This document shows positions 8,201-38,786 of a DNA stretch of 38,786 nucleotides, in pieces. The translations under genes and the position numbers were made by a program. The stretch is from the sequence record SRR31156797_1272. The stretch is one strand, 5' to 3'. The notes under the pieces are model-generated. The model searched no databases and was not told the origin of the DNA. It saw only the letters and a program-made list of their open reading frames with translations. Position 1 is the stretch's first letter. Every line of letters begins with the position of its first letter.

Positions 8201-8692
8201 TTAGGGTGCAAGAATAGCCAATATTTGTTTGGTTACAGTATCGTTGGCCAAACTATTTTTATTTGTCATCAGCATTACTTTTTCAATTTGATCTGTTTGG
8301 GTGAAGTCATTACTACTAGACGAATTTTTGCTTTCAAAAGCAAATATATTCTTGTTATCAAACGCTTTGTTTAGCTTGAAATGATTCACTGAGCTAAAAA
8401 TAAAGAATGCGAAAATAATACCTACAGCTACTTTATACAATGGTATTTTGTAATTGATTATTTCCATTATTATTTTTCTTTTTGTTCTGATTGGTAACTG
8501 AGGAGCCATAGTCTCAACCTCAATATCATTATCAAAGCATGCAGGTAAATTATTTATTGTAGATTTAAACTCATTATACTCAGATTCTGTCATTACTGAT
8601 AAAATGAAATTTTTATCCTTAGTTGATAACTCCTCAAAAACAAACTGTTCAGCCAGTTCAAAGATCTTTTTTTCTTTCTTATCAGAATTCAT
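8201..8692 (-). CDS. Putative single-pass membrane anti-sigma factor
   Basis: Overlaps the ECF sigma stop codon. Small soluble N-terminus, one hydrophobic segment (LYKVAVGIIFAFFIFSSV), short tail. Function inferred from context. Confidence 0.6.
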   Translation of the reverse strand: MNSDKKEKKIFELAEQFVFEELSTKDKNFILSVMTESEYNEFKSTINNLPACFDNDIEVETMAPQLPIRTKRKIIMEIINYKIPLYKVAVGIIFAFFIFSSVNHFKLNKAFDNKNIFAFESKNSSSSNDFTQTDQIEKVMLMTNKNSLANDTVTKQILAILAP

Positions 8693-9242
8693 AATCTTGC
8701 TTTTTTAATAATTTCGATAATTCCTTAATGGTATAAAATAATCTGGATTTGATAGTTCCTTCTGCACAGTCAAATATTACAGCCATTTCTTTTACAGAAA
8801 GATTAAACTTAAATCGTAAAATAATAAGAGCCCGCTTTTCATTGGGTAGCTGTTTAATGTGAGTCCACATTTCATTATTAACAGCATAATCAATTTGATT
8901 ATCAAATAAGCAATTGGCTTCTATGTTTTTTAAATGATCCGAGTATTTATTAAAAACTTTTTCTCTTCTAAACTCATTGTTACACATATTTATAGCCATT
9001 CTAAAAATCCAGGGTTTAAAGCGTTGAGAGCATTTAAAACTAGCTTTGTTTTCAATAAGTTTTAGGAATAAATCGTGCAAAAAATCCTGAGCTTTGTTAT
9101 TATCCTTATGTAAGGCATAATAAAAGTAGTTGACTAATGTTTTTGCATATCGCTGATAAAGCTGATCAAATGCCATTTGGCATTGATCGGCTTTATTCTT
9201 TTGAACTATTTCCATTAATTGTTCGTCAGTCAAAGATTTCAT
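8682..9242 (-). CDS. ECF RNA polymerase sigma-70 factor
   Basis: Region 2 (AFDQLYQRY…AQDFLHDLFLK…FKPWIFRMAINMC) and region 4 (LSVKEMAVIFDCAEGTIKSRL). Confidence 0.93.
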   Translation of the reverse strand: MKSLTDEQLMEIVQKNKADQCQMAFDQLYQRYAKTLVNYFYYALHKDNNKAQDFLHDLFLKLIENKASFKCSQRFKPWIFRMAINMCNNEFRREKVFNKYSDHLKNIEANCLFDNQIDYAVNNEMWTHIKQLPNEKRALIILRFKFNLSVKEMAVIFDCAEGTIKSRLFYTIKELSKLLKKQDYEF

Positions 9243-9251
9243 GAATAGCTG

Positions 9252-10436
9252 TTATTTTAAGATTGATTTCGCATAATCATATGATTCCTGACTAATATTT
9301 TTAGCTATTTTCAATCCTAGCCATTTCATTTTATTAGCTGCATGAATATCTCCGGCTGATGTATAGTAATCGTATAACTTAAAGATACCTGGAATATAAC
9401 TTCTATTTAGGCGGTTAATTGCAGACTGGCTAATGTCGTAACCAAAAGGTTGAGATATGTAATCAAGGGCATATTTATTCTCAAAATTATCGATTAATAA
9501 GGGTATATTATTAATATTACTTTTAGAGTATTCAAAAGCTAGTCCGGTTAAATATAAATTGTCTTCATACCCCTGCACTGCAGAAAGAGGAACACCTAAC
9601 GAAACATAAGTGTGTTGTGTATCTTCATCGATGTTTTCTAATATATGACATGAAATCTCTTTATAAAGGGAGTTAAACTTATTGTTTTGGTCAACTTGTA
9701 AAATGTCTTTAATCCCAATTTTATTAAACATTCTCTGTCTATATTCGGGGTCTGTCAGCATTGGAAGAAGCAATACCGTTACATCCGTTCTAATATTATA
9801 AACATCTTGTAATAACCAAATAGGAAAGGTGTCGTTGTCGCCATATGTAATTAGTATACTATTGGGTTTTAATCCTATTAGTAGGTTGTAACAATAATTA
9901 GTTAAGCCAGGTGATATTTCATTGGTTTCATAAATCTTTTGATTGAATTCTTTTCTTTTTTCGTAATTGCCAACCTTTTCGTAATGGTTAACCATATTGG
10001 GATAGATCTCTGAAATGTCAGGTCTCAATTCGTATGCTTTTTGGAAAAAAGTGAAATTTTCATCAGTCGACTCGTATTTACCTTTTAAATAATAGAATGT
10101 GAATGTATTAGGAATGTTTTCACGAATTAGTTTAAGTAAATCGTCCTTCTTTTTATGAAAGATGGTTTCTTGTAGCCATTCCGTTTCTTTGTTCGTGTCA
10201 AGACTCTTTTCTTTAAAGGTATAATAACTATTTCTATTGGCTTTATAAAAGTTAAACCAAGCCTCTTCATTTTGCTTGTCTTTTTCAATTTCTTTCCACC
10301 ATAATTCAACTTGTTGTGTATAATACTTATGAGGTTTATCCACTTTAGCAAATGAGTATATTTTTTCAGGTTTCTGAGCGGTTAAATATCCAATACTTAA
10401 ACTTATTATCAGGAATATTAAAACAATTTTTCGCAT
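9252..10436 (-). CDS. Secreted hypothetical protein: TPR-like helical N-half plus a segment resembling the extracytoplasmic domain of DUF2723 proteins
   Basis: Signal peptide. FQKAYELRPDISEIY is TPR-like. Motif ILITYGDNDTFPIWLLQDVYNIRTDV. Ends 9 bp before the sigma gene. Confidence 0.6.
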   Translation of the reverse strand: MRKIVLIFLIISLSIGYLTAQKPEKIYSFAKVDKPHKYYTQQVELWWKEIEKDKQNEEAWFNFYKANRNSYYTFKEKSLDTNKETEWLQETIFHKKKDDLLKLIRENIPNTFTFYYLKGKYESTDENFTFFQKAYELRPDISEIYPNMVNHYEKVGNYEKRKEFNQKIYETNEISPGLTNYCYNLLIGLKPNSILITYGDNDTFPIWLLQDVYNIRTDVTVLLLPMLTDPEYRQRMFNKIGIKDILQVDQNNKFNSLYKEISCHILENIDEDTQHTYVSLGVPLSAVQGYEDNLYLTGLAFEYSKSNINNIPLLIDNFENKYALDYISQPFGYDISQSAINRLNRSYIPGIFKLYDYYTSAGDIHAANKMKWLGLKIAKNISQESYDYAKSILK

Positions 10437-29799: not shown

Positions 29800-30360
29800 A
29801 TGATAGTTGAAGGTAGAATAATATCCTACGATAGTATTGAGTTTAAAGAATTATTTGATCGTTTGTATCCATCCATGTGCATGGTTGCAGATCGTTTTTT
29901 TGATAATAATGCGCTGAGTCAGGATATAGTACAAGAGGCCTTTATTAAATTATGGCAGAAAGATGATGAAGAGTTCAAATCGGAACAAGCACTTCGAAAA
30001 TATTTGTATGTTCTGGTTAAAAACGCCGCAATAACCGAATTAAGGAAGCAAAATAGAATAGAAAATTCACCTATCGAGGATCATAAAAATTTGTTGACAG
30101 ATAAGGTGTTTCTTGATGAAGTTTTAAAAGAGGAAACATATCAGTTACTTCAAAAAGCCATATCTAATTTAACTCCCCAAACAAAAAAAATAATTCGTCT
30201 ATCCTTAAAAGGTTATATAAATAAAGAAATTGCCAAGGAACTAAATATTAGTGTAAATACCGTAAAAACCTTAAAACAAAGAGCATATAAAATGCTTAGA
30301 GAGCAATTAGGTAATGAGTTTTTGGTAATCCTGTACATCTATATGGCTTATAACTTGTAA
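29800..30360 (+). CDS. FecI-type ECF sigma-70 factor (Bacteroidota PUL-associated)
   Basis: FKELFDRLY, SQDIVQEAFIKLW, GYINKEIAKELNISVNTVKT. Lies directly upstream of fecR. Confidence 0.92.
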   Translation: MIVEGRIISYDSIEFKELFDRLYPSMCMVADRFFDNNALSQDIVQEAFIKLWQKDDEEFKSEQALRKYLYVLVKNAAITELRKQNRIENSPIEDHKNLLTDKVFLDEVLKEETYQLLQKAISNLTPQTKKIIRLSLKGYINKEIAKELNISVNTVKTLKQRAYKMLREQLGNEFLVILYIYMAYNL

Positions 30361-30377
30361 AAAAAGTATCTTATTTG

Positions 30378-30405
30378 TCACCCACTTGTAATTTTATTGC
30401 GTCTT
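30378..30405 (+). promoter_or_regulatory. Candidate ECF-dependent promoter of fecR-susC-susD (TCACCC-N16-CGTCTT)
   Basis: TCACCC acttgtaattttattg CGTCTT, 30 bp upstream of fecR. The same motif and spacing recur at 38242 and 38502. Confidence 0.65.
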
Positions 30406-30435
30406 TTAGTTACGATGTGTAATTATTCGTAACTT

Positions 30436-31623
30436 ATGGTCATGATGAATCCTATAGATGAGATATTTAAAGTTTCCAAGCTAATAGTAGAAGAAAGCAT
30501 GAGTGATCTTAACGATAATGATCGAGAGCTTTTAAATAGTTGGAAGAATAAAGAAGATAATCTTAAAATTTATGATGAGGTCAAAAGTGAAGTTTTATAT
30601 GTTGATCGTAATCAGAAACTTCAGCAATTTGACGCAACAAAAGCCTGGAAAGGTTTTGTTGTTAGAATGGATAAACAGAATTCAACAAATGAGAGGCGAA
30701 AGAAAAAACTAGCATTCCGTTTTTCTCCAATAGCAGCAATCTTTTTAATAGGTTTATTCACTTATATGTCTGTTGTTATATGGCAGAAATATATGGTAGC
30801 AAATGATATATTAATTGAGCCAGGGCATTATAAAGCAGAGTTGATAGTTGACGGGCAAGTCTTTAAGCTTGAAGATCAAATTAAACATATTAATAAGCAA
30901 GGTGTTAGAATTAGAAATGAGAAGGGAAAATTAATTTATAATAGTAAAAATAATACCGATTCATTAGAAAGATCACCAAATAAGCTTATTGTGCCAAGAG
31001 GAGGTGAGTATCAATTAATTTTATCAGATGGAACAAAGGTTTGGTTAAACTCGGAAACTGAACTCTCCTATCCAGAACAGTTTACTAGTGAGGAAAGAAG
31101 AGTATCCTTAACAGGAGAAGCTTATTTTGAGGTGACTAAAAATCAAAACAAACCATTTATTGTAGAATCTGGAAGTATTGAAATTAAAGTTTTAGGAACC
31201 TCTTTTAATGTGCGTAATTATGCAGAAGAAAAAGTATATGCCACAACCTTGGTTGAAGGTAGTGTAGAGTTGTTGTCAAAAAATAGAGAATTTGAAACAA
31301 CACTTCTTATGCCGGGTTATCAGTTTAAAGTCAATAAGGAAACCAATAAATCTGGTTTACTTCAGGTAAACCTTAAAGAATATGTATCCTGGAAAGATGG
31401 GGTATACACTTTTAAGCATAAACCATTATCTGATGTATTAAACGAATTAAGTCGATGGTATGATGTTAGAATTATATATGCCGATCATGAAATTGGTAAC
31501 AAAACGATAACAGGGAACTTTAAGCGCAGCCAAAATTTTAATGAGTTTATAGAGCTCGTAAATAAAATTGAAGTTGCTGAGCTGCATATAGAAGAAAGAA
31601 CAATTATTGTATCTGAAAAATAA
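30436..31623 (+). CDS. fecR: FecR-family anti-sigma factor
   Basis: TM helix, VPRGGEYQLILSDGTKVWLNSET, RRVSLTGEAYFEV, VLGTSFNV, SWKDG, LSRWYDV. Confidence 0.95.
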   Translation: MVMMNPIDEIFKVSKLIVEESMSDLNDNDRELLNSWKNKEDNLKIYDEVKSEVLYVDRNQKLQQFDATKAWKGFVVRMDKQNSTNERRKKKLAFRFSPIAAIFLIGLFTYMSVVIWQKYMVANDILIEPGHYKAELIVDGQVFKLEDQIKHINKQGVRIRNEKGKLIYNSKNNTDSLERSPNKLIVPRGGEYQLILSDGTKVWLNSETELSYPEQFTSEERRVSLTGEAYFEVTKNQNKPFIVESGSIEIKVLGTSFNVRNYAEEKVYATTLVEGSVELLSKNREFETTLLMPGYQFKVNKETNKSGLLQVNLKEYVSWKDGVYTFKHKPLSDVLNELSRWYDVRIIYADHEIGNKTITGNFKRSQNFNEFIELVNKIEVAELHIEERTIIVSEK

Positions 31624-31700
31624 AAAAAGGGATGCGCCAACATCCCTCTAAAATTTCTCTTACGAAAAGAGATTAAATCTAATGTAACATTACAAATGTA
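31622..31700 (-). ncRNA. Candidate cis-antisense sRNA unit in the fecR-susC leader (promoter -7 box plus terminator)
   Basis: Minus-strand TACATTTG (TAnnTTTG consensus) at 31693-31700. Hairpin AGGGATG-cgccaa-CATCCCT with A7 on +, i.e. a minus-strand terminator. Confidence 0.5.
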
Positions 31701-34700
31701 TGAAAAAGTATTATTTATCGCCACCTCATTTAGGTCGGGGCTGGAAAAGAATTTTTCTAATTATGAAAATGACTTTGTTTTTAGTCGTTATTTTTTGTCA
31801 ACAGGCTTTTGCACGACAGGCTTATTCTCAGATGGATAAGATATCGTTAAAAGTAACAAACTTAAGTATGGTAGAGGTGTTTGAACTCATAGAACAGCAA
31901 ACTACCAAATCGTTTATGTATAAGGATGATGATGTTGTTACCCATCAGAGTCTAAATATAGATATTCAGGATCAGCTTCTTGATGATGTACTGCAACTGT
32001 TACTTAATGATGTTGGTTTAGAATATGAAATAAAGGAAGATTTAATTCTGATTAAACCTTATAATAGTAGTAATAATCAGCAACAAGAAATTACGGTTAA
32101 AGGAAAAGTTCTAGATTATAAAGGAGAACCTATTGTGGGAGCTAATGTTATCCTATTACCCTATAATAAAGGAACTGTTACAGACACTAATGGTGAGTTT
32201 TTACTAAAAGTGAATAGTTCTACAGGAAAACTGAAGATTTCTTGTATTGGTTTCAAACACAAAGAAGTTGAATTTGTTATAAACCAAGAGCTTATTGTTG
32301 TTATGGAGGAGGAGATAGCAGGTTTGGATGAAGTTACGGTTGTAGCTTATGGTACCCAAAAATCGCAAGAAGTTACCGGATCTATTTCATCATTAAAAGG
32401 AGCAGAATTAAGAGATGTCCCAACTGCCAATGTTAATAATCTGTTACAAGGACGAGTTGCAGGAATGAGTGTGGTTAATAGTTCAGGATCGCCAGGAGGA
32501 GGAGGAACCTCTATTGTTATCAGGGGTTTTAATTCCTTGTCAGTAGAAGCAGAAAGGCGTGGTTCTGATCCTCTATGGGTTATTGATGGAGTGCCTGTTC
32601 AGTCTTTTACCTCTCCTGTTACGGGAACTAATGCCTTGGCTGATATCGATCCAAATGATATTGAATCCATTGAAGTACTAAAAGATGCATCGTCGGCTTC
32701 TATGTATGGATCAAGAGCTGCTAACGGGGTAATTTTAGTAACTACAAAAAAGGGTAAAGAAGAGTCTGCAAAGTTAAGTCTTAATTTTTCTCAATCTTTT
32801 GGCTTTAAACCTACTATGTTGGATGTTACAGGAGGTGTTGCAGAAAGACGTTATCATGTAGCTCAGCTAGAAGGCTTACGTACGGCATATCGCTACAAAA
32901 ATGATGAAGGGTATTATGAGTATAAAAATCCCGAAGGGTATATTGATTCATATAATAATTCTGCCCAATATGATTTGTGGTGGAATAAGGGATACGGACA
33001 CGATGATGTGGCTTTGCAGGATAGTTTAAATCCATTTTATAATAACTCTACCAATTGGTTTGATCTGTACATGCAGGCTTCACGCACTTCGGCTATAAAT
33101 TTAAGTGTTTCTGGAGGAAATAAGCAGATTAAATATAATTTAGGAATGGGGTATTACGATGAAACAGGCGTATTAGCCCGAACTAACTTTAATCGTGTTA
33201 ATATGTTGGCTAACTTTCAAATAAATCCGGTAAAAAATCTGGATATGGATTTAAGAATGTATGTAGCCAGAACAGACCGGGGAAGAGCTAATCAGAATGA
33301 TGCATTAGGTATTGAAATGATGACAACAGATCCATTTGAATTATCTACAACTCTGCCAGGGGTTAACTCTGCTGTGTATAATGAAGCAAAAAAATTAACA
33401 GAAGGTGTAAAAGATGATAATATAGGATATCGATTAAGAGGGAGCTATAATATTGCATACGAAATATTTAAGGGCTTGCGTTTATCTAGTTCTATTGCTT
33501 TAGATTATCAACAAGCCGAGAATTATTATTTTGGTCCATCTATTATTTATAGCGATCTAAGGTCAAGGGTAAGTAATGAGATTGATAAACGATCTATGAT
33601 GCTTAATGAAAATCTTTTAAGTTATAAATTTGAAATAGGAAGTAATCGTTTTGATGCCCTTCTGGGTTCTTCTTACCAGTATGATACGCGCATTTATATT
33701 GGGGGAGGCGCAAGAGGAGGATCTAGCGATCAAATACAGTGGGCGGTGAACTTTCCGGAACTGGTATATAATAATGATGTAGCTGAAGCCGGACAGGCTT
33801 TTAGCTCATATAAGATAGAAAAAGCATTATTAGGATATTTTGGTCGTATAAATTATGTATTAAATAATAAATACTTGGCATCCGTTACTTTACGTCGCGA
33901 TGGGAGTTCTACTTTTGGCGAAGATAATCAATGGGGGTATTTTCCATCAGGTTCTGTAGGTTGGATCCTTTCCCGTGAAGCATTTATGGGGAATATCTCA
34001 GCTATCGATTTTCTTAAATTTAGAGGAAGTTTTGGTAAAACAGGTTTGCATTTCTCTCAGCCTTACCTAGCTCTTGGAGTATTTAGTCCTTCTACCTTTT
34101 CATTTCTTGGACGATCAGCAGTAGAGCCAGAATGGGAAGAAGGGTTATATAACCCGCAATTAGCATGGGAGGAAACAGAACAGCTAGATCTCGGTTTTGA
34201 CTTACAAATGCTCAACAATAAGCTGGATGTAACCTTCGACTACTACCATAGGCATACTACAAATCTTTTATCTCAAATAGTATTGCCTTCAGCAGGTAAT
34301 TATACTGGTTATAAGACGCAATGGCAGAATGCTTATTCTATCTATAACCAGGGTGTAGAGTTGATGGTTAAAACAAATATTATAAATAAGCCCGACTTCT
34401 TCTGGGATCTTACCTTTAATATTGCTCGAAATTGGAATAAGTTTGGAGGAGGTGGTGATGGACGTGACTTTCTTAATGGATCCAACAACATTAATATTGT
34501 TGGGAAATCAATGAATCAGTTGTATCTATACCAACAAGATGGTTTCTATCAAACAGATGAAGAAGTACCTGTTTATGATTATATTAAGGAGGGATATTCC
34601 TATACCCAATATGGATCAGGGAATAAATACAATATCTATTCTGCAGGCGATCCTAAATATCTCGATTTAAATGGTGATGGAGAAATTACAGCAGAAGACA

Positions 34701-35242
34701 AAGTATATGCTGGTTCTCCTTTGCCTTTAGCCTATGGAGGTATTATAAATCAAATTACCTGGAAAAACTGGGATTTTAACTGTTTGTTCAATTATTCATT
34801 AGGAGCACACCTCTTAAATGCGGCGATAGGACAAGGGCTAAGTATTGATGTAAATACAGCTACAGGTGAAGCTCATACATTACACCCTGTATTGGTGGAT
34901 TTATCTCAATACAACTTTTGGAGTTATGCGGGAGATGATGCTGATGTAGCTAGAGTTCAGGCCGATGCAGGAAAGAAAGTGTATAGCATGTACACTTCTA
35001 ATATGGTTGAACAGGTTAATTATATTAAGCTTAAATCTATTGTTTTGGGTTATACCTTTAAAAAGATTACTAAAAAAAGTAATATGTCAGCAAGGGTATT
35101 TGCAAGTGGCGAAAACCTTTTTACTATAACAAATTATTCAGGAAGAGATCCGGAAGCAGTTGATCCGGTTACGGGTATTGATAGAGCTGATACCTATCCT
35201 TTAATCAGAAAAGTAACTGTTGGTTTCAGTTTAAATTTTTAG
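31700..35242 (+). CDS. susC: SusC/RagA TonB-dependent transporter with N-terminal signalling (STN) extension
   Basis: N-terminal extension. LDEVTVVAYG, LQGRVAG, DIESIEVLKDASSASMYGSRAANGVILVTTKKG, RRDGSSTFG, C-terminal F. Confidence 0.96.
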   Translation: MKKYYLSPPHLGRGWKRIFLIMKMTLFLVVIFCQQAFARQAYSQMDKISLKVTNLSMVEVFELIEQQTTKSFMYKDDDVVTHQSLNIDIQDQLLDDVLQLLLNDVGLEYEIKEDLILIKPYNSSNNQQQEITVKGKVLDYKGEPIVGANVILLPYNKGTVTDTNGEFLLKVNSSTGKLKISCIGFKHKEVEFVINQELIVVMEEEIAGLDEVTVVAYGTQKSQEVTGSISSLKGAELRDVPTANVNNLLQGRVAGMSVVNSSGSPGGGGTSIVIRGFNSLSVEAERRGSDPLWVIDGVPVQSFTSPVTGTNALADIDPNDIESIEVLKDASSASMYGSRAANGVILVTTKKGKEESAKLSLNFSQSFGFKPTMLDVTGGVAERRYHVAQLEGLRTAYRYKNDEGYYEYKNPEGYIDSYNNSAQYDLWWNKGYGHDDVALQDSLNPFYNNSTNWFDLYMQASRTSAINLSVSGGNKQIKYNLGMGYYDETGVLARTNFNRVNMLANFQINPVKNLDMDLRMYVARTDRGRANQNDALGIEMMTTDPFELSTTLPGVNSAVYNEAKKLTEGVKDDNIGYRLRGSYNIAYEIFKGLRLSSSIALDYQQAENYYFGPSIIYSDLRSRVSNEIDKRSMMLNENLLSYKFEIGSNRFDALLGSSYQYDTRIYIGGGARGGSSDQIQWAVNFPELVYNNDVAEAGQAFSSYKIEKALLGYFGRINYVLNNKYLASVTLRRDGSSTFGEDNQWGYFPSGSVGWILSREAFMGNISAIDFLKFRGSFGKTGLHFSQPYLALGVFSPSTFSFLGRSAVEPEWEEGLYNPQLAWEETEQLDLGFDLQMLNNKLDVTFDYYHRHTTNLLSQIVLPSAGNYTGYKTQWQNAYSIYNQGVELMVKTNIINKPDFFWDLTFNIARNWNKFGGGGDGRDFLNGSNNINIVGKSMNQLYLYQQDGFYQTDEEVPVYDYIKEGYSYTQYGSGNKYNIYSAGDPKYLDLNGDGEITAEDKVYAGSPLPLAYGGIINQITWKNWDFNCLFNYSLGAHLLNAAIGQGLSIDVNTATGEAHTLHPVLVDLSQYNFWSYAGDDADVARVQADAGKKVYSMYTSNMVEQVNYIKLKSIVLGYTFKKITKKSNMSARVFASGENLFTITNYSGRDPEAVDPVTGIDRADTYPLIRKVTVGFSLNF

Positions 35243-35250
35243 CAAAAGGT

Positions 35251-36744
35251 ATGAAGAAGTATATATTTATTTGTATAAGTGTTTTAGTATTAATGTCGTG
35301 TAACGATCTTTTAAATACAGAACCAGAGATTAATGTTAATGTAGATAATTTTTGGCAGAATGAAGGAGATGTAGAATCATTTAGTAATAATTTGCACATT
35401 CTATTTCGAAATTGTTACTCAAATATTCCATGGATTTTTGGGGAAACCAGGGCACGGTCAACTGATGCAATGACTAATTGGCTTTGGAAGGATTTTTTTG
35501 ATAATGATTTAACGAGTCCTTATGGTCAATTAAATTGGTCTGCTTATTTTAAAGTAGTGGCCAGTTGTAATATGCTGTTAGAGAACGTTCACAGAGCAGG
35601 TCTAAAGTCTGAAAGAGAAAAATATTATGTTGGGATGGCTAAATTTATGCGTGCATTTAGCTACTTTGCCATGTCACGCATTTGGGGAGAAGTTCCTTTA
35701 ATGCTTAAGTCAACCGATGTTGAGGCGAAAGCCAAAGCTGAAATTAACGAAATCATGGCCGTAATTATTGCTGATGCAGAAGAAGCAAGAATATTGCTTC
35801 CTCAATTTAGTGAACTTACCTGGGCTGACGGAACATCTGTTACCACAAAACAAATACCTTCAAAAGGAGCTGCGGATGCACTATTAGCTCATGTTTATGC
35901 TTGGTTTGGATCTTTAAATAATGATGAAGAAATGTTGCAGAAGGGTATTGAGGCTTGTACCAGGCTAATGGAAAATACCGAGTATGAACTGGCAGGTACC
36001 ATTGCCGATTTATGTGAAAACGTAATGTATGGAAATAGTTCAGAAGGTATTTTTGAAATTGAAGCAAGGTCTAATTCAGCAGATCAGCTTGGATCAACAG
36101 CTCTGATTGCAGGTTTAACTGCCGGATATCCAGTAATCCCTAAAAAAATGCCAGGAGATATTACGCATTGGAGTCTGCAAAATGTGATTATGGTTGAATC
36201 AGTTAAGGCTTTATATAATGATGTGAATGATGACAGACGTAAAGAGTATTTTTACGAATTAGATGAAATGGCAGAGTTGCCTGAGTCCAACGGACGTGCG
36301 TATTTATACAAATGGAGACATATTGTGTTAACCACCGATGGTAATGACGACTTTTTAACATTTGAAGACAACATAATTTTGTATCGTTTGGCTGATATTA
36401 TTTTATTGAGAGCAGAGCTATTCAACCGTCTTGGAAATGTAGAGGAAGCAATTGTTGATTTAAATGTGATAAGAAACCGAGCCAATGCGCAATACTATTC
36501 AGCTGAAGAAGGTGATTTAAAAGAAGTTATATTGCAAGAGAGATACAAGGAGCTTTATCTTGAGAATCATCGCTTTTTTGATTTGGTGCGGAATGATGAA
36601 TTACGTAATAAAGTGGAAACTTTTAGTGAAATTACCGATCAGGAAGTTGAGGAAGGTGCATACTATTGGCCTGTTTCCAGTTCTAACTTTGTTAAGAATC
36701 CTCATATGCGTCAAAATGCATATTGGAAAAAGCAAGGATTATAG
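35251..36744 (+). CDS. susD: SusD/RagB surface lipoprotein
   Basis: Lipobox LMSC. AKFMRAFSYF, WGEVPL, YRLADIILLRAE, ERYKELYLENHRFFDLVR, QNAYW. Confidence 0.95.
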   Translation: MKKYIFICISVLVLMSCNDLLNTEPEINVNVDNFWQNEGDVESFSNNLHILFRNCYSNIPWIFGETRARSTDAMTNWLWKDFFDNDLTSPYGQLNWSAYFKVVASCNMLLENVHRAGLKSEREKYYVGMAKFMRAFSYFAMSRIWGEVPLMLKSTDVEAKAKAEINEIMAVIIADAEEARILLPQFSELTWADGTSVTTKQIPSKGAADALLAHVYAWFGSLNNDEEMLQKGIEACTRLMENTEYELAGTIADLCENVMYGNSSEGIFEIEARSNSADQLGSTALIAGLTAGYPVIPKKMPGDITHWSLQNVIMVESVKALYNDVNDDRRKEYFYELDEMAELPESNGRAYLYKWRHIVLTTDGNDDFLTFEDNIILYRLADIILLRAELFNRLGNVEEAIVDLNVIRNRANAQYYSAEEGDLKEVILQERYKELYLENHRFFDLVRNDELRNKVETFSEITDQEVEEGAYYWPVSSSNFVKNPHMRQNAYWKKQGL

Positions 36745-37005
36745 TCCTTTGGGGAGTAATCTTTAAGTAAACTATCATTCCGAACAATGTATTTATTTTT
36801 ACCAGAGAATGATGTTTTTTGTAATGAATAATACTAATAAGTAGTGTACATGCTCTTTATAAAACAGAAAGCAGTAGGTATTGCTACATTAAATAATAAA
36901 GAAAATTCCCATAAAAACCATTGGGTTGATAAACTAAAAAGTTTCTGTCTTATGCAAAAGAAAAATGAAAGAAATTTGATTTGGGAATTAAGAAAAACTA
37001 AACAC

Positions 37006-37611
37006 ATGAAGAAACTGATATATTTATTTTGCCTGGTGATGCTCACCTGGGCATGCAAAGATGATTACTACCACGATACCGGTTTGTCCAAAGGAGATTT
37101 AGATATGACCATGTGGGAGTATTTTCAAACCAGTTCTTATAACTGGGATTCAACAATGCTGGTAATTGAAAGGGCTAATCTTAAATCATATTTTACAGGA
37201 GAAGAGATTAGTGAATCTATAACATTTTTAGGAATTACAAATCACTCTATTAGAAAGTTTATGCTTGATAATGGTTATGAGAAAGTAGAAGATATTCCAA
37301 CTGAAGCATGTGAAGAATATATGAAATCCTATATTATTTTAAAACCTTATTTATGGGATGAAATAGACTACGAGGTAAAAGGAACTACATCCAACGAAGG
37401 AGGTATATGGGTAACTAACTTAAATGGTGATCATTTACGATTATTTCGTAGAAAGTCCGATTATGGAACTGTTGCCGATGCTGGTCCGGTTAGCACCTTT
37501 GCTCAATCATTAACAGTAAACAAAACAGTACAGGCAGTATCGACTAATATTCGTACATCCACGGGTGTTGTTCATGCATTAAGTTATACACATTCATTCG
37601 GACCCTTTTAA
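37006..37611 (+). CDS. Lipoprotein with fasciclin-like fold
   Basis: Start moved from 36844 to ATG 37006 (MKKLIYLFCLVMLTWAC-KDD, lipobox plus acidic export signal). ITFLGITNHSI and TNIRTSTGVVHAL resemble the FAS1 H1/H2 motifs. Confidence 0.7.
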   Translation: MKKLIYLFCLVMLTWACKDDYYHDTGLSKGDLDMTMWEYFQTSSYNWDSTMLVIERANLKSYFTGEEISESITFLGITNHSIRKFMLDNGYEKVEDIPTEACEEYMKSYIILKPYLWDEIDYEVKGTTSNEGGIWVTNLNGDHLRLFRRKSDYGTVADAGPVSTFAQSLTVNKTVQAVSTNIRTSTGVVHALSYTHSFGPF

Positions 37612-37621
37612 AACAAAAAAT

Positions 37622-38050
37622 ATGAATTGGATTAAATATATATCTACGTTATTTATAGCACTTAGCCTGTTTTGTGCCTGTGATCAGGATAATGAAGTTG
37701 GGTATTTATTAGTTGATGGGGCAGGCTATAGTCCTGATTCGTTAAATGTTAGGATAGAGCTCGACCCAATACTCGATTCTAAACGTATGGCAAAGAAAGT
37801 ACCTTGGTTTTCTACCTCTATTCAAGGAGTTGAAGGAACATCTCCCTTAAGCTACTCCTTAGCAGATGTTTATTCTGAAGATGGAGATGTTCAAAGCATA
37901 ATTGATAATGTTGAATTTAAAGGAATTGGAGTTATTTATATTCCGTTCGAGAATTCAGTAAAAGAAGGTAGATATACGCTATCTGTTAAAATATCAAATG
38001 TATATGGCGAAAAAGTAATAAAAGACGCTTTTACGATTATAGTAGATTAA
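37622..38050 (+). CDS. Hypothetical lipoprotein, Ig-like
   Basis: Lipobox FCAC-DQD, beta-rich sequence, GRYTLSVKISNVYG. Starts 10 bp after the previous gene. Confidence 0.75.
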   Translation: MNWIKYISTLFIALSLFCACDQDNEVGYLLVDGAGYSPDSLNVRIELDPILDSKRMAKKVPWFSTSIQGVEGTSPLSYSLADVYSEDGDVQSIIDNVEFKGIGVIYIPFENSVKEGRYTLSVKISNVYGEKVIKDAFTIIVD

Positions 38051-38065
38051 AAACAAGATTTGATT

Positions 38066-38104
38066 AAAGGGGCTGCTTTTATTGAAATCGACAGCCCCTT
38101 TTTT
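38066..38104 (+). terminator. Terminator of the susCD locus
   Basis: AAAGGGGCTG…CAGCCCCTTT followed by Ts. Confidence 0.85.
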
Positions 38105-38241
38105 GTGAATCCGGGTTAAAGTTGGAGGCTAGATGCTTTGGTATTATTAAAACTAGTTTTAAACGAAGATGTTAAAACTAAGTATCCAAATAATACTCAC
38201 CAATTCTTGGGGAAGATTATAAAAAAGAAGTCAAATTTTGA

Positions 38242-38269
38242 TCACCCGTTTTTACTTACGGGGTGTCTT
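38242..38269 (+). promoter_or_regulatory. Candidate ECF promoter, repeat copy 1 (TCACCC-N16-TGTCTT)
   Basis: TCACCC gtttttacttacgggg TGTCTT matches the fecR upstream motif. Confidence 0.6.
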
Positions 38270-38274
38270 AGTGT

Positions 38275-38445
38275 AAAATAAGGATAATAAATAGCAGTGT
38301 GTAGTTTATTTATCCTGCGAATTACAATATTGAATTTCGTATTAATTTTTCCATTGTACCTATCTACTAGGATTGCAAATGGTTTAAGTTAATTATTGTG
38401 TAAACAGGAAAACCCGAAATGTAAACGTGCATTCCGGGTTTTATT
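38275..38445 (+). ncRNA. Candidate structured sRNA, copy 1 (~170 nt, ends approximate)
   Basis: Lies between the promoter motif and terminator AAAACCCG-A-AATGTA-aacg-TGCATT-C-CGGGTTTT (38409-38442). Three internal hairpins and no conserved ORF. Confidence 0.55.
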
Positions 38446-38501
38446 ATTAAACAGAGTTCGATTAAAATTTTGAGAATAGATTCAAAAAAATCAAATTTTA
38501 A

Positions 38502-38529
38502 TCACCCGTTTTTACTTTTTGGGTGTCTT
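38502..38529 (+). promoter_or_regulatory. Candidate ECF promoter, repeat copy 2 (TCACCC-N16-TGTCTT)
   Basis: TCACCC gtttttactttttggg TGTCTT. Confidence 0.6.
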
Positions 38530-38534
38530 AGTAT

Positions 38535-38710
38535 TAAATAAGGATAAAAAATAGCAGTGTATAGCTCATTTTTATACCTGCGAATTAAAATATTGATTTT
38601 TGTATTAATTTTTCCAGCAAACCTATCGCTTAGGAATGCAGATGGTTTAGGTTAATAATTGTGTAAACACGAAAACCCGAAATGTAAACGTACATTTTGG
38701 GTTTTTATTT
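38535..38710 (+). ncRNA. Candidate structured sRNA, copy 2 (~175 nt, ends approximate)
   Basis: Terminator AAAACCCGAAATGTA-aacg-TACATTTTGGGTTTT(T) at 38672-38706. Same hairpin layout as copy 1. Confidence 0.55.
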
Positions 38711-38786
38711 AACAATAGTACTTAATCCCTTAATATGCATTAGGAAATCTTCTATAACGCATCAAAATTACTTCAAAACAAGTCAC

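Follow-up and report, generated by a model that had tools for sequence, protein, structure and literature searches.

In enterobacteria, the sigma-E-dependent small RNAs MicA and RybB form the non-coding arm of an ECF regulon that represses outer-membrane channel mRNA. For Bacteroides, the sections of PMC11697453 considered here describe the FopS sRNAs (Rfam RF04319), which block translation by pairing at susC start regions and which bind RbpB (section 8). An earlier note on the DNA analysed here, in which the known PUL sRNAs were held to be mainly cis-antisense, overlooked this trans-acting family, the closest working model for the present case. PUL-associated cis-antisense RNAs, for their part, are non-coding RNAs at SusCD loci, as outlined in the portion of PMC10994844 considered. 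FecI-like ECF/FecR/SusCD loci (ECF240 group) combine the gene order rpoE-fecR-susC(STN)-susD with a promoter shared with fecR, and the parts of PMC7826278 and PMC13472631 covered here describe no trans-acting RNA output for such trans-envelope loci. The same part of PMC13472631 reports dCas12f-sigmaE guide RNA loci, in which dcas12f lies beside rpoE, FecR and SusCD are absent and the guide is found at the 3′ end. As of 2020, no recognition motif was available for any B. thetaiotaomicron ECF sigma according to the consulted portion of PMC7366714, and PMC9723704, likewise in part, belongs to the literature used for comparison.

We analysed a stretch of 38,786 nucleotides (the window), which carries two tandem units close to its end, directly behind a locus like the FecI-like ones in gene order and in the promoter shared with fecR. 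The unit is a real, uncatalogued element, and on balance we favour the reading that the two copies encode ECF-driven trans-acting RNAs which would turn down a housekeeping peptide importer of the BT2261-64 type. Read in this way, the locus is like the sigma-E regulon with MicA and RybB in having an ECF regulon with a predicted non-coding arm against an outer-membrane channel mRNA, and unlike it in the phylum, in the sigma class and in the single dominant predicted target, the likeness being one of logic. Unlike the PUL cis-antisense RNAs, the units lie on the same strand as the SusCD genes, downstream of them, and would be aimed at another locus, the leader of the cognate susC being unmatched. 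From the locus come a concrete ECF promoter motif and, for Bacteroidota, a candidate for the non-coding arm of an ECF regulon; its single predicted target, the BT2261-64-type importer, has a solved structure and lends itself to testing. A dCas12f-sigmaE guide RNA was rejected at this locus, as the sigma gene is directly followed by fecR and susCD, and a conserved hairpin forms the 3′ end of the predicted RNA.

The candidate driver is an ECF sigma factor of 186 aa (29800..30360, plus strand, as are all features below unless stated otherwise; Pfam Sigma70_r2/r4_2/ECF). It is followed by the FecR anti-sigma factor (30436..31623; Pfam FecR, FecR_C), the cognate transporter SusC with an STN signalling domain (31700..35242; TIGR04056 over cut-off, STN a weak match), SusD (35251..36744; Pfam SusD_RagB, SusD-like_3) and, at the end of the operon, two small genes of 201 and 142 aa (37006..38050; no family at E ≤ 0.001), whose signal-like N-termini suggest that they encode lipoprotein-like products. 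A terminator-like hairpin at 38066..38104, seen in the sequence and unflagged by the terminator scan, closes the susCD operon and would insulate the RNA units. The sigma factor is 87% identical to the copy in the relative G001 and 84% to that in G020, the only genomes with a match of at least 84%, seven other genomes being at 50–54%. The window shares its flank with these two relatives and differs from them in the cassette (FecR 44%, SusC 28% identical); FecR of G001 and G020 are 80% identical to each other, compared with the 44% between the window's and G001's, and the cassettes of both relatives continue with thioredoxin-like and M16 peptidase genes. The swapped FecR-SusCD cassette thus defined by comparison of close relatives measures 7 kb in the window (30436-38050) and 22 kb in G001 (L022/L010), and sits between the conserved sigma gene and the RNA unit. 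The most diverged part of FecR is C-terminal (10–32%); a crossover inside fecR was considered and dropped, since the whole protein is only 44% identical.

The two tandem copies are direct repeats within 38224-38710, 86% identical and 260–263 bases apart, in agreement with the ~85% identity and 260-bp distance given in the earlier note. They comprise a block of 88 nt (38224/38484, spacing 260) and a block of 129 nt (38314/38577, spacing 263), each 86% identical, which a single 3-nt indel separates. Each unit is built from a TCACCC-N16-TGTCTT box, a structured RNA of ~170 nt and a terminator-like hairpin. The opening box had been named before and is exact in both copies, at 38242..38269 and 38502..38529 (as box matches, TCACCC-N15-GTGTCTT). 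The predicted RNAs would extend over 38276..38446 and 38536..38710, with the start placed from the −10 box in copy 1, and fold with z-scores of −4.0 and −5.1, respectively, none of 200 shuffles being as good in either case. Their 5′ halves fold differently. Common to all five homologous copies is a long imperfect hairpin (38341..38393 in copy 1), which carries invariant CCTA/TAGG and CCA/TGG pairs and masks the 5′ part of the seed described below. Based on fold and pair counts, the units end in hairpins at 38409..38446, with a short U tract, and at 38672..38710, each of 14 pairs followed by a short T run. From the GC stem plus T run proposed earlier the hairpin is thereby retained; the T run is short, some of its bases pairing with the A run that opens the stem, and a strict terminator scan of 36700-38786 flagged 0 sites. 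Covariation (1 of 24 pairs changed on both sides) has no power here, as true homologues occur only in G001 and G020.

No Rfam family exceeded its threshold in 30000-38786 or 38230-38720, which bears out the view that the unit belongs to no described family; a weak BTnc049 match (24.1 of 81.9 bits) falls on another seed module. The covariance-model search suggested in the earlier note was carried out and gave true homologues only in G001 (two) and G020 (one) among 133 family genomes, the 3′-half model scoring 123–127 bits at these three places and at most 48 elsewhere. Fourteen weak matches of the model were terminators (13 inspected), several with a seed-like word and without the hairpin. A GTDB-wide 19-mer scan returned three stretches, two of them real and the third inside an unrelated gene, and the single stretch from a metagenome pattern search was judged to be chance. 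Searches of viral contigs and of plasmids gave 0 matches each, and among the sequencing runs listed there was no carrier of the RNA. Using blastn against 61 relatives, four genomes matched; the matches in G033 and G009 are short and the element is absent there. The promoter-plus-seed pattern at a distance of 100–130 nt occurred in 3 of 133 genomes, including G030, where it is located inside a gene, and G083, where it marks a long RNA of the g9 genomes (see below) that does not align with the window unit (of 300 shuffles, 130 and 93 aligned equally well).

In G001 and G020, the 3′ half stands alone past the stop codon that ends the last M16 gene, so that it also occurs with no promoter of its own, forming the 3′ UTR of a peptidase transcript, a form the earlier note had missed. 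G001 additionally contains one full copy, whose promoter and 5′ half are 98% identical to copy 2 and which is followed by an SDH_alpha gene with a promoter of the same type. By parsimony, the 3′ half would be the older part, its own promoter having been gained in the lineage of the window and G001. The unit does not behave as a MITE, a possibility the earlier note had raised against itself: there are two strong matches, both at one locus of G001, and a terminal inverted repeat is absent. Outside the unit, 38722..38786 represents the left end of a separate MITE-like repeat of ~180 nt that is cut by the window end. This repeat has 37 matches in G001 (loci L028-L039) and terminal inverted repeats of ~22 bases in 12 of 12 aligned copies, and is probably the reason why the contig ends there. 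Furthermore, the spacer stretch 38446..38468 (no strand assigned) resembles the end of another MITE-like element, with a 16-base exact match to L192; this second family was seen in G008 (L192:2650-2830).

Such surroundings raise the question whether the units are non-functional debris. In that case, the exchange of cassettes together with MITE activity would have doubled an ECF promoter along with the terminator region of an operon, the seed match would be a remnant of a 3′ UTR that once had a function, and the full-length units would have little effect. The exchanged susCD cassette with its SusC at 28% identity to G001/G020, the MITE-like sequence both in the spacer and directly after copy 2, the differently folding 5′ halves and the very narrow distribution are all compatible with this. 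We nevertheless consider it unlikely, because both promoter boxes are intact in 3/3 full copies while the spacer between the boxes varies, because hairpin, seed and terminator are kept in 5/5 copies at 77–88% identity, and because the arrangement outlived the replacement of the whole cassette.

Quite unlikely, in our estimation, is that the units, as small-protein genes or as RNAs with a dual function, produce a hydrophobic, GTG-started peptide of 31–32 residues, either type I toxin-like or a membrane regulator. The corresponding frames, of doubtful coding status, span 31 codons in copy 1 (38297..38392) and 32 codons in copy 2 (38557..38655); they are open in 3/3 full copies, with an indel of exactly 3 nt, and a shared frame as long arose in 23 of 3000 column shuffles, a length threshold that was set after the frame had been seen. 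Against coding, the codon changes amount to 3 silent and 11 replacing between copies 1 and 2 and to 1 and 5 between copy 2 and G001, for a neutral expectation of 24% silent; the swaps are non-conservative with no purifying selection seen, the peptide has no Pfam match at E ≤ 5 and the half copies lack the start. On the minus strand, a single sigma-A-like TAnnTTTG box is present, in copy 2 alone. The inventory of open frames in the earlier note requires correction in two respects: plus-strand ATGs do not all end within 1–2 codons, as one has 4, and the GTG frame had gone unnoticed; MEKLIRNSIL is not the sole minus-strand mini-ORF, as a 21-codon ATG frame exists in both copies (38432, 38695) and an 11-codon frame in copy 2.

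The reading as trans-acting RNAs is carried by the word GGTTTA-N-GTTAAT-W-ATTGTG, which precedes the terminator in all five copies. A search of G001 and G020 that allowed three mismatches placed its reverse complement in one and the same susC leader in both. The copy 2 seed (38644..38664) forms 21 contiguous pairs, two of them G-U, with positions −30 to −10 of this leader, and the copy 1 seed (38381..38401) is antisense to it with one mismatch and one G-U pair. The leader belongs to the orthologue of BT2264 (5fq6, E 1e-195), a gene followed by SusD-like_2, BT_2262-like_C and Lipid_bd genes in a BT2261-64-like operon; the BT2261-64 complex binds oligopeptides, according to the part of PMC7782687 considered. 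The target start region is present in 23/23 same-genus genomes, from which we assume its presence in the window's own genome. Among 27 SusC leaders of G001 this one stands out, at −32.3/−36.6 versus −20.7/−26.6 for the next best and −10.2/−14.0 for the unmatched leader of the cognate susC (25 °C). Likewise, it ranks first of 252 leaders for both copies, with −25.8 and −29.4 kcal/mol (z −6.6 and −6.2), in a SusC-enriched sample of ~250 out of several thousand genes with starts taken at the first ATG. Over 207 leaders, 0/82 and 0/69 base-shuffled seeds paired as well as the real ones, and 63 ordinary pre-terminator stretches gave a mean of −9.2 and a best value of −20.9. A sliding scan along copy 1 has its maximum at the seed (z −6.2, the remaining positions lying between −2.8 and −5.2); in that of copy 2, a stretch of 25 nt ties with a second leader, L066. 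This second candidate target (L066:1500-1535 in G001) belongs to a 237-aa protein of no clear family and pairs with copy 2 only (−26.3).

Across 15 same-genus leaders, chosen by a similarity that includes the paired site, this site is conserved at 0.98, compared with 0.51 further upstream. Within the RNA the seed is mostly paired, and opening it costs 4.6–8.9 kcal/mol; once the cost of opening both partners is deducted, −9 to −17 kcal/mol of binding energy is left in 5/5 homologues. As the target leader is nearly unstructured, requiring 2.0 kcal/mol to open, repression appears likelier than activation, and given the 21-base complementarity to the ribosome-loading region of the importer, the RNAs probably turn the importer down when the sigma is active. 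In the mechanism we propose, an ECF sigma reading TCACCC-N16-(T/C)GTC would initiate transcription near 38276 and 38536, giving RNAs of ~170 nt with their 3′ ends at the hairpins near 38446 and 38710. The 21-nt seed would pair, as computed, with −30 to −10 of the BT2264-type SusC mRNA, the first gene of the conserved oligopeptide importer, and the pairing would keep translation from starting, in the way FopS acts on other susC mRNAs. The sigma regulon would thereby raise its own envelope genes and lower a housekeeping outer-membrane importer while sparing the cognate susC. The idea of paralogous RNAs behind ECF-type promoters that silence a competing transporter, voiced in the earlier note, thus acquires a specific predicted target in the leader of the BT2264 orthologue. 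Literature searches, with most subscription papers outside their scope, found neither a printed description of such a system nor any report combining ECF, small RNA, PUL and trans-envelope; a search for BT2264 or the BT2261-64 importer with small RNA or sRNA also found none.

Distant orthologous loci lack the seed at their 3′ end in 6/6 cases (best −13.5 to −19.1), and that of G076 has a strong seed in an internal 3′ UTR. In G020, four consecutive BT2264-like susCD operons are found (L185-L186), with a full seed-matching leader in two. The 3′ UTR of the target operon in G001 (L187:12990-13060) contains a FopS-like word pairing with its own leader (−20.9), possibly a feedback loop.

Conservation of the shared word at both leader and RNA could alternatively mean that it is the site of a DNA- or RNA-binding protein, the RNAs or loci being decoys that act without base pairing, for which the binding of RbpB by FopS, as given in the cited part of PMC11697453, would offer a parallel. 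We regard this as very unlikely, since the word has opposite orientations in leaders and RNAs and seed and target differ at G-U-compatible positions. Moreover, RRM_1 (RbpB-type) genes were found in 0/2 nearest genomes, with B. thetaiotaomicron as a positive control, which also speaks against the titration of an RNA-binding protein suggested in the earlier note.

Judged by score, profile, promoter, length and fold, the window unit with its predicted base-pairing RNAs resembles FopS in predicted action and is not a member of that family. The RF04319 covariance model gave 18.6 bits against a cut-off of 56, and only at 38523-38578, and the G001 copies are absent from the four RF04319 matches in that genome at E ≤ 1. 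A two-block profile of the R1′ seed, with an anti-start and an anti-leader block and built on 27 FopS and FopS-like loci, scored 12.3 and 10.0, within the null range of 8.6–22.4 (12 shuffles). FopS measures ~70 nt, with a single-stranded 5′ seed and then the terminator; the window unit, in contrast, has ~170 nt, and its seed lies ~105 nt from the inferred start, mostly paired inside the conserved hairpin. FopS, the known trans-acting repressor of susC mRNA, is driven by sigma-A (PMC11697453, in part), whereas the window units carry an ECF-type promoter instead: the sigma-A promoter TAnnTTTG, present before true FopS loci, was found nowhere on the plus strand between 38051 and the window end. 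The predicted target of the window unit, the BT2261-64-type importer, was not found in the searched part of the FopS supplement. FopS proper exceeds the cut-off in 22/151 genomes of the order and in 0/5 family genomes. Diverged FopS-like units of 23–38 bits, several per genome, were seen in G001, G014, G020, G063 and G084 (L245-L265); as two of these genomes have no RRM_1 gene, RNAs of the FopS-like kind may be independent of RbpB there. Equating the box with the PM2 motif of GibS was unsupported, a GibS-like locus being without the box.

The promoter is taken as ECF-type from the position and conservation of its TCACCC-N16-(T/C)GTC box. A one-mismatch copy, TCACCC-N16-CGTCTT, lies before fecR at 30378..30405 as the putative promoter of fecR-susCD. 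As the box alone is weak within the window (six matches at two mismatches versus 2.5 expected), support comes from relatives. In G001, 7 of the 25 genome-wide matches of TCACYC-N16/17-GTCHT fall into the 24-kb syntenic locus, all on one strand, with a reversed-box control yielding 19 matches genome-wide; its intergenic boxes occur at the syntenic locus and before one other M16 gene. There are none in the blocks around six other ECF-FecR-SusC loci, the fecR promoters of which look related to the box. The same box precedes fecR in G001 and G020, also in G078, G005 and G018, and cassette genes in 5/6 distant orthologous loci fully examined (sigmas ~52% identical), with none in G071. The RNA units thus have their promoter boxes in common with fecR and the cassette genes: the −35 box is the same as in the neighbour's promoters, the −10 box is mostly GCGTC at cassette genes, and the RNA promoters carry GTGTCT.

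This GTGTCT class marks a regulon in 17/18 genomes of the sister genus g9, 2/2 genomes of genus g10 and 3/23 genomes of the window's genus, and none in G020; only five of the g9 genomes gave a close match to the window sigma. Classified by sequence tags, 65 such sites lie before DsbD_N-type genes (25), a PALP enzyme (9), Crp-like genes (3), an M16 peptidase (1) and non-coding units (20), with 7 unclassified, and among them no sigma gene was recognised behind the sites. The g9/g10 loci (L347-L414) accordingly present a putative ECF regulon under TCACCC-N15-GTGTCTW with DsbD_N proteins, a PALP enzyme, a Crp-like regulator and an M16 peptidase; the same promoter heading DsbD_N, PALP and M16 genes is in keeping with sigma-E regulon logic. 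We rate it as about equally likely that the RNA promoters would be read by the FecR-coupled sigma next to them and that this would fall to a paralogue sharing its −35 preference. Induction through the neighbouring SusC, as put forward in the earlier note, is uncertain.

Two further uncatalogued RNA families are indicated under the same promoter. A short g9 unit, present in eight genomes between Tex-like and Crp-like genes (L329-L335, L342, around position 1500), combines the RNA promoter type, with fixed boxes and variable spacer, with an anti-BT2264-leader seed and a terminator; it gives −20 to −30 with the G031 leader and −17 to −30 with its own fetched leader, three of these being paralogues. 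It may be the leader of the Crp-like gene behind it. A structured g9 unit of ~150 nt occurs behind the same promoter at 12 sites (L347, L353, L356, L360, L363, L379, L386, L387, L393, L398, L404, L412). Its seed, which is weaker and sits in a loop, gave −12 to −19 in the four cases tested, and in several loci the unit is divergent from a 407-aa GTPase-like gene, presumably hydF. Neither unit aligns with that of the window, and none of those scanned (one short, two ~150-nt) reached an Rfam threshold.

That the window units are themselves 5′ leaders or attenuators of a downstream gene lost or beyond the window end, which stops 76 bases past copy 2, has a parallel in the short g9 analogue before the Crp-like gene, which the same promoter drives directly at three other sites, but is highly improbable, as copy 1 is followed by the copy 2 promoter and no ORF, the gene next in line in G001 is served by a separate promoter of this type, and the G020 half copy ends an operon; the refuting outcome named in the earlier note, homologues that always form the 5′ UTR of a downstream ORF, did not occur. 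With the trans-acting reading, a wider scheme is conceivable, which we advance tentatively as a minority view: a Marinilabiliaceae circuit like that of sigmaE and MicA, in which an ECF regulon with genes for disulfide handling, for cysteine and for peptidases would have recruited unrelated sRNAs at least three times (the ~170-nt window pair, the short g9 unit and the ~150-nt g9 unit) against one importer leader site. The RNA output would be kept while the FecR-SusCD sensing cassette is exchanged, connecting a new input to the same output.

A parallel short RNA in the family follows a lolE-like gene in 13/36 loci (e.g. L194:2800-2940) and carries the same anti-leader word behind a TGGCA box, which we take to be sigma-54-like. 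Its seed follows local changes of the leader in G095, G076 and G003, and for eight copies of the common same-genus type, leaders of the own genus pair better (~−20 versus −15). Seed-like words are also found directly before terminators in 3′ UTRs at L171, L183, L065, L042, L056 and L211, the host genes including a prolyl oligopeptidase, an SDH_alpha gene and another M16 gene. Finally, the window contains a second ECF sigma factor (8682-9242, within 8201-10436 on the minus strand), neighboured by a secreted-looking protein of 394 aa and a protein of 163 aa, both with no Pfam match, the latter of which may be its anti-sigma factor.
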